This document shows, one piece after another, positions 20,028 through 29,867 of a stretch of 64,000 nucleotides of DNA (position 1 is its first letter; each line of letters starts with the position of its first letter). The DNA is from an uncultured Candidatus Binatia bacterium. GTDB lineage: Bacteria > Desulfobacterota > Binatia > UBA9968 > JAJDTQ01. The translations under genes and the position numbers were made by a program. Where the stretch lies: positions 416,001 through 480,000 of the forward strand of contig OZ243916.1 in the NCBI GenBank assembly GCA_965213675.1, given 5' to 3'. Under the pieces are notes generated by a model. It did not search any database. It was not told the origin of the DNA and saw only the letters and a list, made by a program, of their open reading frames with translations.

Positions 20028-20843
20028 GTGACGTCCATCGAGAAATGGCCCGATGATGCCAAGGTGGCGGTGCTGGTGACGCCGATGTTCGAAACCTGGT
20101 CGGTGGGCAAGGCGCCGTCCTATTCGCCCATGTCCTCGCCCCTCAAGCCGGGGGTGGTGGACCGGCTCGGGGTGTCCTGGTCGGAGTATGGCGGGCGCAC
20201 GGGCGTGTGGCGCTTCATGAAGATATTCCGGGAGTTCGAGGTGCCGGCCACGGTATGCGTGAGCGGGCGCTCGGCGGAGATGTTTCCCGAAGCGGTCCGG
20301 GCGCTGCATGACAACGGGCACGAGTTGGCAGGACACTCCTACACCCAGGACACCTTCCTCACCGATCTTTCCGCGGAGGAGGAGAAGGCGGTGATCGGGC
20401 GCTGCTTCGATCTCATCGAAGCGGTGGCCGGCGTGAGGCCGGTGGGCTGGCTGAGCCCCAGGGCGACGCCCACGGAGCACACCGCGGGGTTCCTGGCGGA
20501 AGCCGGTTGCGTCTGGCACGGCGATTACAACGACACCGATGTGCCCTACCGCATCGTTACCGGCGCGGGGGACATCGTGGCCATTCCCCACAGCGACTTT
20601 GCCGACAACCGGGTGCTGCGGGGCAGTCCGCGCGATTTCCTCAACGTCTACAAGGATACCTTCGACTTCCTGTACCGGTCCGACGCACCTGAGATGATCA
20701 ACCTCACCGTCCACGCGCACTTCGGCGGTCGCCCCATGATCGCCAGCATGCTGACCGAAATCCTCCGTTACATGAAGGGCTTCTCACGGGTCTGGTTCGC
20801 GCGCCACGACGAGGTGGCGCGCTGGATGTTGAAGCAAGGGTAG
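20028..20843 (+). CDS. Polysaccharide deacetylase (PuuE/allantoinase-like CE4) family protein
   Basis: WPDDAKVAV, EYGGRTGVWR, GHELAGHSYTQ, GWLSP, VWFARHDEVA. GTG start after GAGAGGA. Confidence 0.88.
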   Translation: MTSIEKWPDDAKVAVLVTPMFETWSVGKAPSYSPMSSPLKPGVVDRLGVSWSEYGGRTGVWRFMKIFREFEVPATVCVSGRSAEMFPEAVRALHDNGHELAGHSYTQDTFLTDLSAEEEKAVIGRCFDLIEAVAGVRPVGWLSPRATPTEHTAGFLAEAGCVWHGDYNDTDVPYRIVTGAGDIVAIPHSDFADNRVLRGSPRDFLNVYKDTFDFLYRSDAPEMINLTVHAHFGGRPMIASMLTEILRYMKGFSRVWFARHDEVARWMLKQG

Positions 20844-20934
20844 GACGTCCTCTGGCTGCCCGCTTTCCCGGAAATGGCACACTCGTGGGTCCGGTTTCCC
20901 TCTCCCAGCGCGTCGGCTCCAAGCCGACATGGGA

Positions 20935-20957
20935 GATTCCCGCGGAAGGCGGGAATC
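20935..20957. repeat. REP-like palindrome between convergent genes
   Basis: GATTCCCGC-GGAAG-GCGGGAATC perfect 9-bp stem. Confidence 0.6.
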
Positions 20958-21012
20958 CCGGGGCGCGCTGAGCCTGTCCTCGCTTCCAGCTTCTGCAACA
21001 TTGGGGTTTCAC

Positions 21013-21588
21013 TTACCCCAGCGGTATGTCCACGCCGTTGAGGGTCAGCTCCGGCACCACTTCCACGGGCCGCCGCAGCGTGTTGGTGGTGTAACAGGAG
21101 CGTTCCAGCGCCTCGGTGAACTCGACGATGCGCTCCTGACTGTCCGGACTTTGCAGATCGAGCCGATACACGAGCCGGGTGCACGCCGAGGGGACGTCCG
21201 ACAGCCCGAACTTGCCTTTCTGGTCGAACTCGCCGCGCACCGACATCTCCGCGCGCTCAATGCGGATTTCCATGAATGACGCCAACTGCGTCACTTGGCT
21301 GAGCATTCAGAAGCCGATGGACGCGATGAAATATTGCAGCGGGGCCGCGCCCTTGCCGGTGCCGCCGCGCGACTCTGGCTCGTCGCACAGGATGGTGTAA
21401 CCTTCCGACGTCCTGGCTTCCTTCAGGTGGTCGTTGACCAGGCGGATGCGCGCCTCATGCACTGTGACCGCCTTGGACGGATCCTCCCGGTAGACCTTCT
21501 GCCGCCGTTCGAATACGGCCTTGTGGCGCCGGTAGTCGATGGAGCAGCAGCCGGGATCGTCGAATTCCCGTTCTTCGTCAATGGCCAT
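21013..21588 (-). CDS. OsmC/Ohr-like protein, probable selenoprotein (Sec94 at UGA 21307-21309), 191 aa
   Basis: ORFs 21307-21588 and 21013-21306 are contiguous in one frame: DEPESRGGTGKGAAPLQYFIASIGF-UGA-MLSQ...ERSCYTTNTL. The UGA occupies the first conserved OsmC Cys position and a hairpin follows it. Confidence 0.85.
21275..21295 (-). promoter_or_regulatory. Putative bacterial SECIS hairpin
   Basis: On the mRNA: AGUGACGC-AGUUG-GCGUCAUU. The apical loop starts 19 nt after the UGA, with G at loop position 2. Confidence 0.7.
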
Positions 21589-21770
21589 GTTTCCTCCGTT
21601 TCCGTTGGCTGATCCCCGTTTCTTCCCTGGAATGGTTCCCGCATGTCAAGCCGCGGCGGCCACGATTGCTTCGGGCCTTCTAAACAACAGATGGGTTTTC
21701 GATTAGACTTGAGGGCGGGGGCGATGGCCCGGAACGCGCGCCTCACGAAATTTTCGAGTTCAGGGGACCC

Positions 21771-23120
21771 ATGCCACAAGACCTGAGAAGCTATCTGGAG
21801 TTGGTGGAATCCAGGGACGACCTGGTCCGCATCGCGGATCCCGTGGACCCGCGTTACGAAGTGAGCGCACTGGTGGCGAAACTGGCGCGGGTACGGCGCC
21901 GCCGGCCGGTGCTCCTCCTGGAGAACGTCAAGGGCAGCGCGTTCCCGGTGGTGACCAACCTCCATGCCGGCCGCCGGCGCATGGCATTGGCCATGAACAG
22001 CGAACCGCGGGACGTTCAGCGCGCGTTTCTGCGGGCCATGGAGCGCCCGGTGGCGCCCGTGGTGGTGGACAGCGGGCCGGTCAAGGATGTGGTGCATACG
22101 GGCGCCGGCGTGGACCTGCTGGCGCTGCCGCAGATCGTCCATCATGCCGCGGACGCCGGCCCCTACATCACCGCCGCCATCTCCTTCGCCCGGGACCCGG
22201 AGAACGGCGCCTGGAACTGCGCCTACAACCGCCTGATGATCATGGGGAAGGACCGCACGTCCATCCACATTACCGCGTCCAAGCACCTGTGGGAGTTCTA
22301 CCAGAAGGCGGAGGCCCGGGGGGAGGCGCTGCCCGTGGCCTTTGCCGTGGGCGTTCACCCCGCCATCGGTCTGGGCGCCCTGGCCATCGGCTCCATCGAC
22401 GAAGACGAGCGCGCCATCATGGGCGGTGTCCTGGGGGAGCCGCTGGAACTGGTGCGCTGCGAGACCTCGGACCTGCTGGCGCCGGCCCACGCCGAGATGA
22501 TCCTGGAAGGGGAGATTCTTCCCGGTGAGCGCACTCCCGAGGGGCCGTTCAGCGAGTTCACGGGCTACAGCCTTGGGGAGCGCCAGCGCGAGGTGGTGCG
22601 CTACCACGCCGTGACCATGCGCGAAGGAGCGCTGTTCCACGACATCTCCGTGGCCCAGGTGGACCATCTGCTGCTGTCCACCATTCCCATGGAAGCCAAC
22701 CTCTACCGCGCCGTGCGCGCCATGGTTCCCTCTGTGACCGCGGTGCGCGTGCCCGCGCCCTACAGTTGCTACGTCGCCATCGAACAGCGCGTCTCCGGCC
22801 AGGCCAAGAACGCCATCCTGGCGGTGCTGGGCGCAGACATGTACATCAAGCGCGTGGTGGTGGTGGACCACGACGTCAACATCTTCGACGACCGCGAAGT
22901 AGCCTGGGCCCTGGGCACCCGCTGCCAGGCGGACCGCGACATCACGGTGATCTCCAATACCCGCGGCTCCGACCTCGACCCGTCCACCGACTCGGACGGC
23001 CACACCGCCAAGTGGGGCATCGACGCCACCGCCAAGCCCTCCCTGGCCGCGTACACGCCGCGAAACCGCATCCCGCGGGACGTGCTGGAAGGCATCGACC
23101 TGGACAAGCTGGGGCTCTGA
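21771..23120 (+). CDS. UbiD-family (prFMN-dependent) decarboxylase
   Basis: DLRSYL, DAGPYIT, YNR, EGPFSE, VVVVDHDVNI, WALGTR, LDPS, KWGIDAT. Confidence 0.93.
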   Translation: MPQDLRSYLELVESRDDLVRIADPVDPRYEVSALVAKLARVRRRRPVLLLENVKGSAFPVVTNLHAGRRRMALAMNSEPRDVQRAFLRAMERPVAPVVVDSGPVKDVVHTGAGVDLLALPQIVHHAADAGPYITAAISFARDPENGAWNCAYNRLMIMGKDRTSIHITASKHLWEFYQKAEARGEALPVAFAVGVHPAIGLGALAIGSIDEDERAIMGGVLGEPLELVRCETSDLLAPAHAEMILEGEILPGERTPEGPFSEFTGYSLGERQREVVRYHAVTMREGALFHDISVAQVDHLLLSTIPMEANLYRAVRAMVPSVTAVRVPAPYSCYVAIEQRVSGQAKNAILAVLGADMYIKRVVVVDHDVNIFDDREVAWALGTRCQADRDITVISNTRGSDLDPSTDSDGHTAKWGIDATAKPSLAAYTPRNRIPRDVLEGIDLDKLGL

Positions 23121-23249
23121 AAGCCCGCCCCGCAAGTACCGTGACCGGCTGTGGTGGGACGATGTCGGGACGATGCCCCGTCGGGGCTGTTGCGGGCGAC
23201 CGCTTGGCCAGCCTGCTTCCCGGGGACACGCCGTTTGCCGACTGCGTTG

Positions 23250-24077
23250 GCTGCGTCTGAAGATTTTCCTTCGCACGGATCAGGCCGACGAAAACCGCAT
23301 CGCCGACTTCCCGGACGCATCCAAGGTGCTGTCTTCCTCGGCGGAACTGGGTTGGCCCGCGCGCGAACTCTACGGCCTGTTGTGGCAGTGCCTGATCAAC
23401 GGGGCGACCGGGGACCAGTTTCGGGCCTTCCTCGCCCAGGAGGGCTGGCCTTCCGCGGAAATTGCAGGCCAAACGCTGTATCACGTTCCACGTCGACTTG
23501 TTTCCGCCGACGACGCTCAGCGCCGGAAATTTTACGAGATCTCCGGACCGTGGACGGGCCGGAACGCAAAGCGCGGCTTTCCCTACACATGGATTCCCAA
23601 CCACTTGGGAGATACAAGAGGCCAGGTAAGTCCACGGTCGTTTCTTGTCGCCTTGCGTGAAGCCGCTCGGGACACGGCGGAGCGCCACCCGGAGCATGAC
23701 CACGCGCTGCACTTCGAGAGCATCAAGCACGGCGTGCAGAAGGTGTCCAGCATACGGGTTGCCGAAATCAGGGAGGACTATCCATGGATGCCCGCGTACT
23801 CGCCCCGCTCGTAGGCATGATGGTTCCATGTGGATTCGAGGCAATTGTCGAGCGCTGGAACCGGGAGAGGAGTCTGAAACTCCTGATTGAGGATTCCCAA
23901 CAGGATGAGATCAAGCTTCCGCCTCGTCACGCCGACCATGGGGCGGACGGAGTTCTCCAGGACCTCGAATCGCTGGGCGTGTTCCAGCCCCTGTACGACG
24001 GGCGCGTGAATATCCCCGACGTGTTCCGGGTTGGCCATGGCCTGGGCCGCAAGGGCGGCGTGAAACCGGCCCAATGA
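23250..24077 (+). pseudogene. Truncated, frameshifted C-terminal remnant of a P-loop ATPase-type protein
   Basis: Reads LKIFLRTDQ...NHLGDTRGQVSPRSFL...EIREDYPW, shifts frame near 23790, then VLAPLVGMMVPC...RVNIPDVFRVGHGLGRKGGVKP. No N-terminus or Walker A; lower GC. Family recalled, not searched. Confidence 0.55.
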
Positions 24078-24103
24078 CCAGGACGCCTCCTCCTGGGCGG
24101 CGT

Positions 24104-24367
24104 TCAGGCGCGGGAACCCCGGCCCATCAAGTGCTCGAACCGAGGCATCCAGGACTGTTCCCGAAACTCTTCGTCGAACACGTCCGCGAACTTCACGGGC
24201 TCCGTCATGTACGGCGGACCCTGGGCTCTCTGAAACAGCGTCAGCGGAATGATGGGTGACAACTTCGCGCAGCCGGCCCGCCGTTCCTCGTCCCAGAGAT
24301 CCATGCAGGACTTCAACAACTGGAGCCGCACCCACGGATCCGGGTGGGAATTCCGGTCTTCTCGCAT
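24104..24367 (-). pseudogene. Rpn/YhgA-like (Transposase_31) nuclease fragment
   Basis: SHPDPWVRLQLLK..DLWD...LSPIIPLTLFQ...FADVF...WMPRFEHL resembles the Rpn core after the EHQS motif. Only 87 codons. Confidence 0.55.
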
Positions 24368-24556
24368 TACATTCTGGTACTGTGGGAGCTCGTCGGACTA
24401 ATCAAGAATCTGCTGCGAGGCATGGAGTTGGGTCCATTTCCGGTTGGATTTTCGTCCAATATTACCAATATTTTCCTCAAATCCGCCCGAAACTGGCCTC
24501 CAGTTCTCGGCCTCTCGCTACGATTCGATAAATCCGACAGGCTCCCAGCGATCATC

Positions 24557-25972
24557 ATGGACCATCCTGAACCGGTCGAGCCGACTCGAAACTTCGTCTG
24601 TCTGCTGGAGGACACGGCCGCGCGCTTCCCGGAGAAGGCCGCGCTGGTCTGTCCCGAAGAGACGCTCACTTACAGAGTGCTGCACGAACGCGCCGCGGGC
24701 TTTGCGCGGGAACTCGCGGGCCGGGGGGTTCGGCCCGGCGACCGGGTGGCGCTGGTGTTGCCCAATCACTGGAGCTACGCGGCCGCGCTGCTGGGCGCCT
24801 GGAAGCTGGGCGCCACCGCGGCACCGTTGAGTCCGTTGCTGAAATCCGGGGAGCGGGACGCGATCCTGGCGGACGTGGAACCGGCCGAGGTGGTGGAGCG
24901 TGTGGAGGCGCGGGCGGGCGCGTGGGACACCGCGACGGAAACGGCCGCGCCAAGCCACTTCGGCTACAGCTCGGGCAGCACCGGCCGGCCCAAGGGCGCG
25001 GTCTTCAGCCACGGGGCGCTGGCCTTCGCCAACCACTCCTGGGCGGATATGATGGCGCTGGCGCCGGAAGACGTGGTGCTGTCGGTGCTGCCACTGCCCC
25101 ATTCCTTCGGCCTGAACGGCTCTCTGCTGGCGCCGCTGCTCAGAGGCGCCACGGTGGTGCTGCCCGGCGGTTTCGCCCCGGCCGCGGTGCTTGCCGCCAT
25201 GCAGGAACACCGCGTCACGCTGTTCCTGGGGGTGGCCACGATGTTCCGGCGGCTCCTGAGCGCTTCGGATTTCGCGGACGCGGACCTGTCTTCGCTGCGT
25301 CTCTCGGTGTCGGGCGCGGCGCCGTGTCCCTGGGACCTGGCTTCGGAATGGCGCCGCCGGGCCGGCCACCGCATCCTCCGAGGCTACGGCATGACCGAGT
25401 TGTTCCGGCCCATCTCGTACTTGGCGTCGGAGACGGAGGATCGCCCGGAGTGCATCGGTCGGGCGGTTCCGGGCGTGGACATCCGGGTGGTTGCGGACAC
25501 GGAAACAGGAACCGGGGGCGGCGACACGGGGGAACTGTGGATCAGGACCCCGGCCGCCATGCAGGGCTACTGGAACGACCCGGCGCCGGCGCTGGAGGAT
25601 GGCTGGTTCCGCACCGGGGATCTTGCCCGGATCTCCGCCGGCGGGTACGTGGAAATCACCGGACGCATCCGGGAACGCATCCTCCGGGGCGGATATTCGG
25701 TCTTTCCCCAGGAAGTCGAGGCGGTGCTGGTCGCGCACCCGGACGTTGCCGAGGCCGCGGTGGTGGGGGTGCCGCACCCGGAACTGGGCGAAGAGGTGGC
25801 GGCGTTCGTGGTGGTGAAACCGGGCGCCAAGCCGGGAACGGACGCCCTGGCGGCCTACTGTGCGGACCGGCTGGCCCGCTTCAAGTATCCGCGGCACATC
25901 CGTTTCGTGCCCGAGTTGCCCAAGGGGGCGACCGGAAAGGTATTGAAGGCGGAATTGCGAAGCGGCTGGTGA
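24557..25972 (+). CDS. AMP-dependent acyl-CoA synthetase/ligase
   Basis: YSSGSTGRPKG, GYGMTE, GWFRTGDL, GYSVFPQEVE, LPKGATGK. Confidence 0.92.
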   Translation: MDHPEPVEPTRNFVCLLEDTAARFPEKAALVCPEETLTYRVLHERAAGFARELAGRGVRPGDRVALVLPNHWSYAAALLGAWKLGATAAPLSPLLKSGERDAILADVEPAEVVERVEARAGAWDTATETAAPSHFGYSSGSTGRPKGAVFSHGALAFANHSWADMMALAPEDVVLSVLPLPHSFGLNGSLLAPLLRGATVVLPGGFAPAAVLAAMQEHRVTLFLGVATMFRRLLSASDFADADLSSLRLSVSGAAPCPWDLASEWRRRAGHRILRGYGMTELFRPISYLASETEDRPECIGRAVPGVDIRVVADTETGTGGGDTGELWIRTPAAMQGYWNDPAPALEDGWFRTGDLARISAGGYVEITGRIRERILRGGYSVFPQEVEAVLVAHPDVAEAAVVGVPHPELGEEVAAFVVVKPGAKPGTDALAAYCADRLARFKYPRHIRFVPELPKGATGKVLKAELRSGW

Positions 25973-25983
25973 GGGGAAGAAAA

Positions 25984-26012
25984 GGGGAGGGGAGCCGCGG
26001 GTTCCCCTCCCC
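25984..26012. terminator. Hairpin between convergent genes
   Basis: GGGGAGGGGAGCC-GCG-GGTTCCCCTCCCC. Confidence 0.65.
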
Positions 26013-26024
26013 GTCATCCTGCGA

Positions 26025-27074
26025 CTACTTCTTCGCTTGACTGACCAGGAAGGACAGGCTCTCCTTGACCTCTGGCGGCATGTTGATGATCCCGTCCACG
26101 AGTTTCTCTACCTCCGGACCCGGCACATAGGTGAACACGAGTTTCGCCTTCTTGGCTTCAGCCAGCAGTTGGGGGTCCTTCACGGTTTTCTCGTAGGCTT
26201 TCCGCAGGATTTCCACGCGGTCTTTGGGCGTGCCCGGCGGCAGCGCCAGCATCCTCTGGAACGCCATCTGGAACGCCCATGAGTTGTAGAGCTTGAGACC
26301 TTCCTCGTTCAGCACGTCCTTGAACAGCGGAATGTTCTGGATCTCCGGATCCGGATAGCTGTGGCTGTGGATGACGAAGGGAACCAGTTTCTGGTCGCCC
26401 TCGGCGTCCAGCATGCTTCGGGCGGTCACCCTCATGGACTCCCACTGGGAGCAGAAGCCGTCCACCTCTCGTCCTTCCAGCGCCAGCCGTATGGTGGCCG
26501 TGCCCCGGTACCCGGTGATGATCTTCAAGTTGGTGCCCAAGGCCTTGTTGAGAATCGCCGGGATGTCGTGGCCGGTGGAGCCGGCCCGGGTGGCGCCGAT
26601 TTTGATGGGCTCCTTGGAGTTGACGACGTCTTTCCACGTGGTCTTGCCGGTGAAAGCCATCATCATGCACACGATCTCGCCCCGGCTGGGGGCGCCGACC
26701 CATTCCAGCTTGTCGAAGGGCACCGCGCCGGCCTTCTTGTCGCCCAGTGCCGACTGCACGATGAGCGAGTTGTTGAACACCGCGCCGCTGAGCCCGTCGG
26801 GTTTGGCGCGCCGGCCGATGTAGTTGGCGGAGATGAGGCTGCCGGCGCCGGTCATGTTCTGAACCAGCGTGGTGGGGTTGCCGGGGACGTACTTGCCGAA
26901 GTAGCGGGCGATCAGCCGGGTGTAGGTGTCGTAGCCGCCTCCGGGAGAGAAGCCCACGATGAAGCGGAATGTCTTGCCCTTGTAGAAGTCTTCGGCGCGT
27001 CCCTCGGGCGCCGCGAACAGGGCCGCGCCCCCGATGATGGCCGCGGCCAGAAAGGATAGACCTTTGCGTGTCAT
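26025..27074 (-). CDS. tctC: Orphan TctC/Bug substrate-binding protein
   Basis: Signal peptide; FYKGKT..VGFSPGGGYD..R; NMTGAGS; KPDG; PPGTPKDRV. Confidence 0.92.
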   Translation of the reverse strand: MTRKGLSFLAAAIIGGAALFAAPEGRAEDFYKGKTFRFIVGFSPGGGYDTYTRLIARYFGKYVPGNPTTLVQNMTGAGSLISANYIGRRAKPDGLSGAVFNNSLIVQSALGDKKAGAVPFDKLEWVGAPSRGEIVCMMMAFTGKTTWKDVVNSKEPIKIGATRAGSTGHDIPAILNKALGTNLKIITGYRGTATIRLALEGREVDGFCSQWESMRVTARSMLDAEGDQKLVPFVIHSHSYPDPEIQNIPLFKDVLNEEGLKLYNSWAFQMAFQRMLALPPGTPKDRVEILRKAYEKTVKDPQLLAEAKKAKLVFTYVPGPEVEKLVDGIINMPPEVKESLSFLVSQAKK

Positions 27075-27232
27075 GGATGTCCCTCCGTTTCGGTTTTGCC
27101 GGCGTTGCCGGCGCCAAGCCCCCTTGGCTACAGAAGTGGGCCTGTCATGTCAAGGCGCGCGGTCAGCGCATTGAGAAATGCGCCGGCCGGTGTTATGGGA
27201 TGACGGTAGACAAACCAGGGAGGTACTTGTTT

Positions 27233-27466
27233 ATGGCAGATTCCATCGTTCTGTTCACTCAGCCCGGTTGACCGCCTTGTCATCGAGAGAAGGAGTATCT
27301 TTCTCAAAAAGGCGTTGATTTCGTGGAGAAGAATATTCGTGAGGACCAGGACGCCCTGAAGGACCTGCTGGCCCGGGGCTTCCAGAGTACGCCGGTGGTC
27401 ATCATCGACGGGGAGGCGGTGGTCGGTTTCGATCAGGATCGGATCGACACGCTTCTCGGGCTCTGA
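27233..27466 (+). CDS. Glutaredoxin/NrdH-like redoxin, probable selenoprotein (UPPC; Sec13 at UGA 27269-27271), 77 aa
   Basis: With read-through: MADSIVLFTQPG-U-PPCHREKEYLSQKGVDFVEKNIREDQDALKDLLARGFQSTPVVIIDGEAVVGFDQDRIDTLLGL*. GGGAGG RBS, cis-Pro STP motif and VGFD motif present. Confidence 0.9.
27273..27314 (+). promoter_or_regulatory. Putative bacterial SECIS hairpin
   Basis: Lower stem CGCCTT/AAGGCG; upper stem GAGAAGGA/TCTTTCTC with (A)GUA(U) loop about 22 nt after the UGA. Confidence 0.72.
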
Positions 27467-27586
27467 TCCGAAGACCGTGCCCGGGGTTTCCGAACCACGG
27501 TGGCGGGCGGCGCGGCGTGCGCCGGATGGCTTGTTCGGTTGGTCGAATCGTGGCGCGTCGCAGGGACACGGGAAACGCACCTGCGG

Positions 27587-27649
27587 TCGCGCCTTGCCGA
27601 CAACGAAAAAAACCTGCGCAACTTGTCGCAGGAATTTACGGGACACGAC
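27587..27649. repeat. MITE remnant, same family as 8692-8850 and 33434-33465
   Basis: 27587-27601 is the exact reverse complement of 8741-8755. 27618-27649 is 29/32 identical to 33434-33465. Confidence 0.75.
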
Positions 27650-29867
27650 CCTTGGCCTTGAGCGCCTTGACGATCTTTTCCGGTGTGAGCGGAAGGTCGT
27701 GGATGCGCACGCCCACGGCGTCGAACACGGCGTTGGCCATGACCGCGGGTGGCGGAATGATGGGCGGTTCGCCCACCCCTTTGGCGCCCAGTGGCCCAGA
27801 CGCGCAGGGGTGCTGGATGAGGCGCACATCCACTGCGGGGGCGTCCAGCGCGCTGAATATCTTGTAGTCCAGCAGGTTGGGATTATCCATTTTCCCGCGG
27901 GTGAAGGTGCATGCTTCGCTGAGAGCCTGCCCCAGCCCTTGCAGGACCCCGCCTTCGATCTGACCGCGCACCGACAGCGGATTGACCGCGGTGCCCACAT
28001 CCTGCGCCGCCACGTAGCGCAGGATGCGTACGTGGCCCGTCTCCGGGTCCACCTCCACCTCGGCCGCGTGGGCCGCCATGGCGGGGTGCGGGGTGAGCTG
28101 CGACACGGACTGTGCGCTCACGATGGGGCCGCGCGCGTGCTCCAGGGCCATCTGACCCACCTCCCGCAGCGTCACGGAGCGCTCCGGGCTACCCTTGACG
28201 AATACCTTGTTGCCGTCGAGTTCCAGGTCGCCGGCGTCGGCTTCGAGCCGATCCGCGGCCACCTGCTGAATCTGCCGCTTTGCCTCCCGGGCCGCCTGCA
28301 GCACCGCGCTGCCCATGCTCTTGAGCGCCTGACTGCCCGCGCTGAGGGTGGAATGGGGCGCGAAGTCGGTGTCCGCGGTGCGCACATGCACGTCGTCCAG
28401 GGACACGCCCAGCACTTCCGCCGCGATCTGGGCCAGTGAGGTGCTCGCCCCGCTCAGGTCCACCAACCCGGTGAGGATGGCGACGGTGCCGTCCTCGTTG
28501 AGCTTCACGCCGGCGCTGGAGGCCATGCCGCCCACGAGCCAGTGGGCCATGGCCACGCCGCGTCCGATGTGCTTCCGCCGCGGTTTCGGGGCCGCGTTCA
28601 GGGCCTCCGCCGCCGTGAGCAGCGTTTCCCTGGCGTGCACGTCCTCGAGCCGGACGCCGGCAGGGGTCTCGTCGCCGTCCACCATGGCGTTCCGCAGCCG
28701 CATCTCCACGGGGTCGACGTCCAGCTCCCGGGCGATGATGTCCATCTGCGACTCCGAAGCGAAGGCGAGCTGCGGCCCGGCCGGCCCGCGGTAGGCGCCG
28801 CACGTCGGCGTGTTGGTGTAGACGCAATAGCTGTCGATCCTGAGGTTGGGGATGCGGTAGGGGCCTGGCGCGCGCACCGCCGCGCCCTGGCTGATCATGA
28901 CGCCCGAGCCGGAGGAGAAACCGGTCCCCAGCACCACTTCGATTTCCCGCGCCGTGATGGCGCCGTCGTTCCTGACGCCGGTCTTGTAGCGGAGGTGAAA
29001 CGGATGCCGCGGGTTGGTGGTCTGGAAGTCCTCGCTCCGGCTCATGACGATGCGCACCGGGCGCCGCGCCTTGCGCGCCAGGGCCACCGCCGCGGGCTCC
29101 ACCGTGGGCGACAGCTTGCCGCCGAAGCCGCCGCCGATCTCGGTGGGGATCACCCGTACCTTGGTCATGGGCATGCGCAGGATCTGCGCGATGGCGGCGC
29201 GCAGCGGGAACTGCGCCTGGGTGGGCGCCCACACGGTGGCCTTGCCCGAAGCGTCGAAGCGCGCCAACGCGGTGTGCGGCTCGATGTAGGTCTGATGCAC
29301 CATGGGGGCGTGGAAGCGGTGCTCGAAGATCCGGTGGGCTTCGGCGAAACCACGCTCCACGTCGCCGCGCACGATCCGCTTGTGGCCGCAGACGTTGCCA
29401 CGGCGGTCCAGGTCCGGCTGCGACCAGTATTCGGCGTAGTCCTCGTGCAGCAGCGGCGCGTCCGGCGCCATGGCCTCCAGTCCGGAGGTCACCGAGGGCA
29501 GCACCTCGTAGTCCACCTCGATGAGCCGTGCCGCCTCCTCCGCGGTCTCCTCGTCCATCGCCGCCACCGCGGCGATGCGGTCGCCGGCGTAGCGCACCTT
29601 GGTGGTGGCGAAGTAGGCTTCATCGCGGACGAAGCGGCCGCAGCGGATGTCCGGCAAATCGGCCGCGGTGACCACCGCCCGGACGCCGGGCAACCGCTCG
29701 GCGCCCTCGGTGCGGATGGCGGTGATGCGGGCGTGGGCATGCGGGCTCAACACCATCTTGCCGCACAGCACCCGGCCGCCGGGTGAGACGTCGGCGCCGA
29801 ACACCGACTGTCCGGTGACCTTCTCCATGATCTCGACCCTGGGAAGCTCCTGACCGACGACTCTCAT
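27636..29867 (-). CDS. Xanthine dehydrogenase/CoxL-family molybdopterin-binding subunit
   Basis: EKVTG, SPHAHAR, GGGFGGK, GAYRGPAG, EVEVDPETG, GQIEGG, GAKGVGE. Confidence 0.95.
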   Translation of the reverse strand: MRVVGQELPRVEIMEKVTGQSVFGADVSPGGRVLCGKMVLSPHAHARITAIRTEGAERLPGVRAVVTAADLPDIRCGRFVRDEAYFATTKVRYAGDRIAAVAAMDEETAEEAARLIEVDYEVLPSVTSGLEAMAPDAPLLHEDYAEYWSQPDLDRRGNVCGHKRIVRGDVERGFAEAHRIFEHRFHAPMVHQTYIEPHTALARFDASGKATVWAPTQAQFPLRAAIAQILRMPMTKVRVIPTEIGGGFGGKLSPTVEPAAVALARKARRPVRIVMSRSEDFQTTNPRHPFHLRYKTGVRNDGAITAREIEVVLGTGFSSGSGVMISQGAAVRAPGPYRIPNLRIDSYCVYTNTPTCGAYRGPAGPQLAFASESQMDIIARELDVDPVEMRLRNAMVDGDETPAGVRLEDVHARETLLTAAEALNAAPKPRRKHIGRGVAMAHWLVGGMASSAGVKLNEDGTVAILTGLVDLSGASTSLAQIAAEVLGVSLDDVHVRTADTDFAPHSTLSAGSQALKSMGSAVLQAAREAKRQIQQVAADRLEADAGDLELDGNKVFVKGSPERSVTLREVGQMALEHARGPIVSAQSVSQLTPHPAMAAHAAEVEVDPETGHVRILRYVAAQDVGTAVNPLSVRGQIEGGVLQGLGQALSEACTFTRGKMDNPNLLDYKIFSALDAPAVDVRLIQHPCASGPLGAKGVGEPPIIPPPAVMANAVFDAVGVRIHDLPLTPEKIVKALKAKGRVP

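Follow-up and report, generated by a model that had tools for sequence, protein, structure and literature searches.

Two genes in a 64,000-nucleotide (nt) stretch of the genome of an uncultured Candidatus Binatia bacterium (GenBank assembly GCA_965213675.1, contig OZ243916.1, positions 416,001 to 480,000 of the forward strand; hereafter "the window") contain an in-frame UGA codon that we read as selenocysteine (Sec): an OsmC-like gene on the minus strand (21013..21588) and a glutaredoxin-like (Grx-like) gene on the plus strand (27233..27466). We conclude with high confidence that the two are selenoprotein genes of known families, independent of each other and transcribed separately, and that they reside in a selenoprotein-rich genome and use ordinary bacterial selenocysteine insertion sequence (SECIS) elements. 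Inherited gene order, and not a functional unit, best accounts for their proximity. The genes, the positions of their Sec codons, the hairpins with their conservation, and the Sec machinery of the genome were computed directly; the catalytic cycles and reductants discussed below are taken from knowledge of the protein families.

The OsmC-like gene comprises 191 codons including Sec94, whose UGA lies at 21307..21309 on the minus strand (context ..PLQYFIASIGF-U-MLSQVTQL..), and ends in TAA at 21013-21015. Read through the UGA, it matches the Pfam OsmC domain at 53 bits, and at 135.2 bits against a cut-off of 95 it falls within NCBIfam NF041052, "OsmC-related (seleno)protein", with residues 45-185 aligned to model positions 5-144 of 144. 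U94 falls on the first conserved Cys both in three full-length Cys homologues and in the OsmC-family chains 2opl, 3cje and 1lql in PDB, which carry Cys at both positions. Sequence similarity to these solved structures is weak (E from 7e-6 to 9e-4). The second, resolving-type Cys of the protein is C165, which is invariant in the homologue alignment. We compared the gene with 33 related loci (16 close, 16 distant and one that falls short of the Sec site): TGA is kept in 16/16 close loci (86-94% identity), and TGC or TGT stands at the Sec site in all 16 distant loci that cover it (30-36% identity). Exactly one TGA is present in each of 17 same-genus orthologues, and other genera supply six related OsmC-Sec genes (38-62% identity), which keep both the TGA and the frame downstream of it. 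A separate OsmC-like match of 42% identity (G219:C5:155890-156216), possibly a decayed copy, covers only residues 79-187 and contains a TGA as well as a TAA.

The Grx-like gene, which resembles YruB and NrdH, has 77 codons and the active site U13-P-P-C16. Its Sec codon lies at 27269..27271 on the plus strand (context MADSIVLFTQPG-U-PPCHREKEY.., with ..TQPG-U-PPCH.. around the Sec residue), and its own stop, at 27464-27466, is also TGA. The read-through product scores 55.5 bits against Pfam Glutaredoxin PF00462, for which the gathering threshold is 22.9, and its UPPC aligns with the CPHC of PDB 7c10 (E = 4e-20) and the CPPC of 3zij, such that U falls on the first Cys of the CPHC motif in 7c10. 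Among 301 sampled genomes of the class, each of the 46 orthologues recovered carries one TGA (46/46, 62-95% identity), as do all 14 Grx copies found within the related OsmC loci. Assignment to the UXX-star family can be set aside, as the protein scores 51.6 bits against NF041212 (cut-off 66) and the frame beyond its terminal TGA stays open for a long stretch, lacking the stop two codons on that a C-terminal U-x-x-stop requires.

Each UGA is followed by a hairpin that fits the bacterial SECIS model we applied, which allows an apical loop of 3-9 nt with a G in its first two positions, an upper stem of 4-16 bp and a minimum free energy of at most -7.5 kcal/mol, and which places the element 16-37 nt after the UGA; the Grx hairpin fits once its conserved lower stem is counted. 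In the OsmC-like gene (21275..21295, minus strand), an 8-bp stem (AAGUGACGC/GCGUCAUU region) carries the apical loop AGUUG at 21283-21287, which begins 19 nt after the UGA (22 nt from its U), and folds at -9.7 kcal/mol. In the Grx-like gene (27274..27313, plus strand), an upper stem at 27287-27294/27298-27305 is capped by the loop GUA at 27295-27297, beginning 23 nt after the UGA, and stands on a lower 4-bp stem at 27274-27277/27310-27313. This hairpin can be drawn as 8 bp with loop GUA or, with the A-U closing pair opened, as 7 bp with loop AGUAU; the upper stem alone reaches -7.0 kcal/mol, just above the model limit of -7.5, and the centroid that includes the lower stem reaches -10.8 kcal/mol.

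Folding energies are unremarkable compared with shuffled sequences (z = -0.9 for OsmC and -0.8 for Grx), and in counts that use a simplified version of the published SECIS model, a model-type hairpin follows 625 of 3000 random in-frame coding positions (20.8%) and 197 of 1077 true TGA stops (18.3%). We therefore judge the two hairpins to be above chance because of TGA conservation and suppressed synonymous change, not because of fold energy. The OsmC stem has 87% of cells paired across 12 distinct sequences, compared with 13-47% when the partner strand is slid, and two of its pairs are altered on both sides. Synonymous entropy in this gene is 0.14 bits inside the hairpin versus 0.54 outside, and codons with an unchanging amino acid use a single codon in 8/10 cases inside the hairpin versus 49/135 elsewhere, a count based on the window and the 8 of 16 loci with gap-free alignments. 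The corresponding values for Grx, from 22 same-genus sequences, are 9/14 inside and 6/43 outside. Across 17 distinct Grx sequences every cell of the upper stem pairs (100%), with seven of eight pairs invariant and a G-U/A-U switch in the other, and in the lower stem 88% of cells pair, one pair being altered on both sides; the rare codons CUU, UCU and AAA/AAG of the Grx stem are fixed down to 66% protein identity. An Rfam scan of positions 20500-28000 returned no matches at E up to 1.

The genome in which these genes reside is equipped to read UGA as Sec, with a complete Sec machinery. The assembly containing the window spans 4.53 Mb at 65.7% GC, and profile searches recovered selA (592.7 bits), selB (378.6 bits) and selD (377.3 bits), each above its curated cut-off and all clustered at C1:2713784-2718494; selD itself carries one TGA. 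Genes for tRNA-SeC are found on contigs C1 and C4 of the assembly. The small contigs C3, C4, C12, C17 and C19 partly repeat C1 sequence, with a copy of one peroxiredoxin (Prx) selenoprotein gene (the second Prx gene listed below) on C12, the tRNA-SeC gene on C4 and other candidates on C3, C17 and C19. These repeats fit the reported 8% contamination or redundancy, and the two tRNA-SeC genes may be a single gene. A literature search on Binatia or Binatota together with selenoproteins returned nothing relevant.

Public gene calls split or truncate both window genes: in protein searches, 12 of 14 Grx homologues begin downstream of the TGA and the other two read W there, and two of six OsmC homologues begin at the Met directly after it. 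Such calls are what one would expect if the TGAs were inactivating nonsense mutations that had turned both genes into pseudogenes, or if they encoded Trp or Gly under an alternative genetic code. We give this explanation almost no weight. The TGA and the frame downstream of it are kept in every orthologue examined, for Grx down to 62% identity; homologues carry Cys, and neither Trp nor Gly, at the TGA position; TGA is the commonest stop of the genome, ending 1077 of 1889 long open reading frames (ORFs); and the Sec machinery is complete. The two homologues with W (P0007 and P0008, 65-66% identity, ..QPG-W-GPC..), in which the Sec TGA is rendered as Trp, presumably derive from short contigs called under a TGA=Trp code. 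The parts of the original prediction that concern recoding are thereby borne out. It had placed both UGAs at the position of a redox Cys, which the Cys homologues of OsmC and the PDB chains 2opl, 3cje, 1lql and 7c10 confirm; it had drawn both apical loops as AGUnn (AGUUG and AGUAU) shortly after the UGA, and 8-bp hairpins are found at both sites; and it had argued that chance nonsense mutations at these positions are unlikely, which agrees with the conservation of TGA in 16/16 OsmC and 46/46 Grx loci and with the frozen synonymous sites, both genes being real.

Across the whole genome we count at least 18 selenoprotein genes that passed a family check, with 19 Sec codons among them, a gene being counted if an NCBIfam or Pfam match spans its TGA. 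The inventory was compiled from genome-wide in-frame TGAs with coding signal on both sides, followed by the NCBIfam and Pfam check, and is a lower bound, as neither of the two scans behind it was exhaustive and formate dehydrogenase was not looked for. The first scan used a codon model seeded on ORFs poor in R, H, P and G, and missed the window Grx gene, which has a weak codon signal; the second combined looser coding limits with a hairpin filter, recovered Grx and added three genes. Two initial codon-usage models had been dropped, having been trained partly on antisense "shadow" ORFs and having chosen the wrong strand for OsmC. Candidates L017, L022 and L024 were discarded as adjacent genes in one frame, and L029 and L030 for having no domain across the TGA. 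Much of the Grx gene consists of A/U-ending codons that form the SECIS stem. Its codon score is barely positive, and automated gene finding would probably overlook it.

Beyond the two window genes, the inventory holds 16 genes, in each of which the family match extends across the TGA. With the position of the TGA on contig C1 in brackets, these are a GrdB-family gene (11973), a PrdB-like gene (182291), a BCP peroxiredoxin (574234), a second Prx (1006951), a UGSC-family gene (1241595), an AhpC/TSA UxxC redoxin (1471380), a UXX-star family 1 gene with two Sec codons (1514891 and 1515068), a DUF3179 gene (1650357), an ArsC/Spx-family gene (2286533), SelD (2717493), a rhodanese-like gene (2910602), a ResA/TlpA-like gene (2958368), a DsbA-like gene (3217531), a second OsmC-related gene of UxxT type (C1:3452965-3453450, TGA 3453148), a deiodinase-like gene (3533954) and a CMD/AhpD-like gene (3742746). 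The families of all 16 are already tabulated in a 2026 review (PMC13188914). A model-type hairpin follows 18 of the 19 Sec codons. The UXX-star gene (L016, G000:C1:1514855-1515070 plus the next 9 bases) has one Sec at residue 13 (F-U-PYT) and another at its C-terminus (GGS-U-A-V-stop), and both marks of that family are present, namely a score above the cut-off and a C-terminal U-x-x-stop. Downstream of its second Sec codon, in the 3' untranslated region, lies a GC-rich hairpin whose loop is GGUC; at its first Sec codon no model-type hairpin was found. Both MsrA genes of the genome are Cys forms.

The inventory allows us to ask how far the shared AGU of the two window hairpins is a local feature. 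The original prediction had proposed a lineage-specific SECIS consensus, and had suggested scanning the genome for UGA followed by an AGU-loop hairpin. At the 19 Sec codons the apex is AGU in seven cases, GGU in four, CGU in three and G without GU in four, with one site lacking a hairpin, so that G-U stands at the hairpin tip in 14/19. AGU is thus the commonest apex at Sec sites (7/19), compared with 0.6% of the 625 background hairpins, where AGU also makes up only about 4% of NGU apices; and of ten AGU-apex matches among 1073 in-frame TGA candidates, seven are family-checked selenoprotein genes. These figures would suit a Binatia SelB that favours A before G-U and so makes AGU a lineage-specific determinant with its own local consensus. 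We nevertheless consider such a determinant unlikely. Twelve of the 19 Sec sites have no AGU apex, the alternatives including GGU, CGU and tips without GU. In the 12 OsmC-Sec rows compared, G-U is invariant (12/12) and the base before it varies and co-varies with its partner, being A in seven rows and G in five, paired as A-U or G-C; the genes from other genera of the same order have the apex G|GUA|C in five cases and A|GUG|U in one. In four of the seven AGU sites the A is the 5' half of an A-U closing pair, and in Grx the AG of the apex also ends a conserved Glu codon.

The bacterial SECIS apex as published in PMC13188914, N1(0-1)-G-[G|U]-N-N2(0-1), has N1 paired with N2 and lies 16-37 nt from the UGA; it permits any base at N1, and a conserved G in a small apical loop is described already in a passage of a 2005 paper (PMC1088965). 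AGUAU and AGUUG are plain instances of this published pattern. Of the proposed consensus, then, the shared G-U and the enrichment of AGU stand, and its specificity to the lineage is doubtful, the general pattern covering both hairpins and the A being variable; the suggested scan likewise proved productive, with seven of ten AGU matches being real selenoprotein genes, and incomplete, with 12 of 19 Sec sites built otherwise. A mild local preference for AGU is possible, on a tally made in this genome alone.

Several observations weigh against our reading of the window or narrow it. Sec insertion at both UGAs is a prediction drawn from conservation and covariation. The literature yielded no characterised member of the OsmC subgroup NF041052, and a peroxidase activity of the OsmC-like protein would follow by analogy with the wider Ohr/OsmC family. 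The Grx-like protein lies below every NCBIfam cut-off, its best score being 74.4 bits against the 88.55 required by TIGR02196 (YruB family), followed by 58 bits against the 85.75 of TIGR02194 (NrdH); it resembles YruB/NrdH-like proteins without formal membership. On the genome's codon model, the Grx gene scores 10.8 in its own frame and 12.9 antisense. Finally, the two genes lie 4.2-7.8 kb apart in 14 of 17 genomes of the genus, and on different contigs in the other three, a constancy that could reflect a functional tie.

Such a tie was the most far-reaching element of the original prediction, in which the Sec-containing Grx would be the dedicated reductant of the selenenylsulfide of the Sec-containing OsmC protein, in a Sec-to-Sec relay protecting the UbiD-type and molybdenum enzymes encoded nearby. 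Besides the spacing within the genus wherever both genes are on one contig, it can draw on the composition of the genome, in which both OsmC-family genes are Sec forms and, of the four PF00462 matches, the window Grx alone contains a TGA; a published Sec-Grx that serves a Sec-MsrA offers a precedent. We consider it very unlikely. The neighbours of the OsmC gene are both plus-strand genes, for a polysaccharide deacetylase and a UbiD-family protein, and those of the Grx gene are both on the minus strand, namely a 349-residue ORF and the gene for the large subunit of a molybdenum hydroxylase; since each is flanked by opposite-strand genes, neither shares a transcript with its neighbours or with the other. 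Nor do the two form an operon, being encoded on opposite strands and separated by four genes. Their spacing is also 4.2-5.9 kb in 14/14 loci long enough to show it (this set and the 17 genomes above overlap and consist of close kin, and are hence not independent counts), and it is constant because the whole of a nine-gene block is syntenic at the level of this one genus: CoxS, CoxL, Grx, the 349-residue ORF, AMP-ligase, UbiD, OsmC, deacetylase and a PLP (pyridoxal phosphate) enzyme.

Wider comparison points the same way. Grx is present in 21/21 same-genus genomes and, among 28 genomes that represent other genera of the order, in about 25, and an orthologue of the window OsmC gene is present in 17 of the 21; in the other four same-genus genomes (98-99% complete), we searched for the window OsmC gene and failed to find it, so that Grx occurs without it. 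A related OsmC-Sec gene (41-60% identity) occurs in six genomes of other genera; there Grx is separated from it by 594 or 931 kb or lies on a different contig, although in two of the six the OsmC contig is shorter than 6 kb and could hide closeness. Grx was found within 10 kb of a Cys-OsmC gene in 0/17 loci, and none of the window's neighbour genes occurs within 1.5 kb of Grx in eight other-genus loci, so that outside the genus Grx and OsmC were never seen adjacent and the neighbours of Grx differ. When 18 random sites were placed on the 3.97-Mb contig, a pair at most 5,960 nt apart arose in 37% of simulations (P = 0.37); the next-closest real selenoprotein gene pair is 43.5 kb apart. The biological reductants of Ohr/OsmC proteins are stated, in the relevant section of PMC5384416, to be lipoyl groups on proteins. 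Neither co-transcription nor adjacency kept beyond close relatives, either of which would mark an operon or functional pair, was found.

Gene order, co-occurrence and family biochemistry accordingly lend no support to electron transfer from Grx to OsmC, or to a relay that serves the UbiD and molybdenum enzymes. The expectation that the pair would co-occur and remain syntenic in relatives fares better in part: closeness is kept within the genus, and it fails in the four same-genus genomes without an orthologue of this OsmC gene and in the genomes examined outside the genus, where the genes were never seen adjacent. A narrower version, in which Sec-Grx was recruited in this one genus to reduce the Sec-OsmC selenenylsulfide and the 4-8 kb spacing marks a shared regulatory neighbourhood instead of an operon, seems to us hardly more than a slim chance. 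Were it true, the relay would be a second natural example of tandem Sec proteins, after Sec-Grx with Sec-MsrA, and a moderately interesting one for selenoprotein research; the evidence points away from it.

With the two genes taken as independent selenoprotein genes, the following course of events can be proposed. SelB carrying Sec-tRNA(Sec) would bind the short G-U-tipped hairpin about 20 nt after each UGA and, once bound, would recode that UGA as selenocysteine; the TGA that ends the Grx gene and the TGA stops elsewhere in the genome, having no suitably placed hairpin, would terminate translation normally. The OsmC-related protein would most likely act as a two-residue peroxidase, in which Sec94 would attack a hydroperoxide and the resulting selenenic acid would be resolved by Cys165 to form a selenenylsulfide. 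An external dithiol, for the OsmC family a lipoylated protein, would then reduce this bond. The 77-residue Grx-like protein would probably serve as a general U-P-P-C disulfide reductase of YruB/NrdH-like type, with Sec as the attacking residue.

Both families have been known as selenoproteins since 2005, and the window genes are further members of them: OsmC-like (UxxT) and Grx (UxxC) selenoproteins are listed in part of PMC1088965 and again in Table 1 of PMC13188914. The window OsmC protein resembles the OsmC-like selenoproteins of the 2005 Sargasso Sea selenoproteome and of NF041052 in its OsmC fold signature, in having Sec for the first catalytic Cys with the second Cys kept, and in the SECIS right after the UGA, whose small apical loop contains a G. 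It differs in its motif, which is U-M-L-S (UxxS) where the published one is UxxT, as in the genome's second copy, and in having some 45 extra N-terminal residues outside the NF041052 model. Compared with the Ohr/OsmC Cys-peroxidases (E. coli OsmC, Xylella Ohr), the likeness is in a pair of redox residues, 71 residues apart in the window protein and "approximately 60" in the family according to PMC5384416, and in the expected cycle, by analogy, of hydroperoxide attack, intramolecular bond formation and reduction; those enzymes have a peroxidatic Cys where the window protein, only weakly similar to the solved members, has Sec.

The Grx-like protein shares with the selenoprotein glutaredoxins (UxxC), as these are described in portions of PMC1088965 and PMC13188914, a thioredoxin-fold Grx domain, an N-terminal UxxC and a SECIS inside the coding region, and is closer to the short YruB/NrdH-like redoxins and PDB 7c10 than to the classical glutathione-dependent Grx3. 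Both hairpins fit the bSECISearch bacterial SECIS consensus, including an upper stem of at least 4 bp and a U after the G in the first two loop positions, with no substantive difference. Nearby selenoprotein genes are also seen in the clusters grdA-grdB and prdB-prdC, in the frhA-frhD-hdrA cluster, and in Sec-Grx with Sec-MsrA, the last like the window in including a Sec-Grx; the known clusters, however, are operons, whereas the window pair lies on opposite strands with four unrelated genes between, in one genus only. Going by the title of a 2011 report by Kim et al., Sec-Grx is said to be adapted to reduce Sec-MsrA; in the present genome both MsrA genes are instead Cys forms.

The main value of these results is in correct annotation, since standard gene callers split or truncate both genes, and recognising them returns two redox proteins to a Binatia genome. 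The set of 18 genes and 19 Sec codons, all from catalogued families, could also help to tune SECIS-based gene finders for GC-rich uncultured lineages.

Some minor features of the gene neighbourhood complete the description. Between the selenoprotein genes, two ORFs at 23173-23814 (plus strand, 213 residues) and 26025-27074 (minus strand, 349 residues) matched nothing in Pfam at E up to 1e-5; the latter, which is the 349-residue ORF kept in the genus block, resembles a secreted solute-binding protein as judged by sequence alone. A promoter and terminator scan was uninformative, with one promoter-like match against 0.8 expected and two terminator-like matches against 5.7 expected. In the eight other-genus Grx loci (L087-L094, about 1.5 kb on each side), a divergent M28 peptidase gene adjoins Sec-Grx in seven, and on the other side of Grx in those seven there is an isochorismatase-family gene and then a dienelactone hydrolase gene (on the same strand) in four, and a dienelactone hydrolase gene directly in three. 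The M28 peptidase and dienelactone hydrolase setting of Grx is more widely conserved than its setting in the window.

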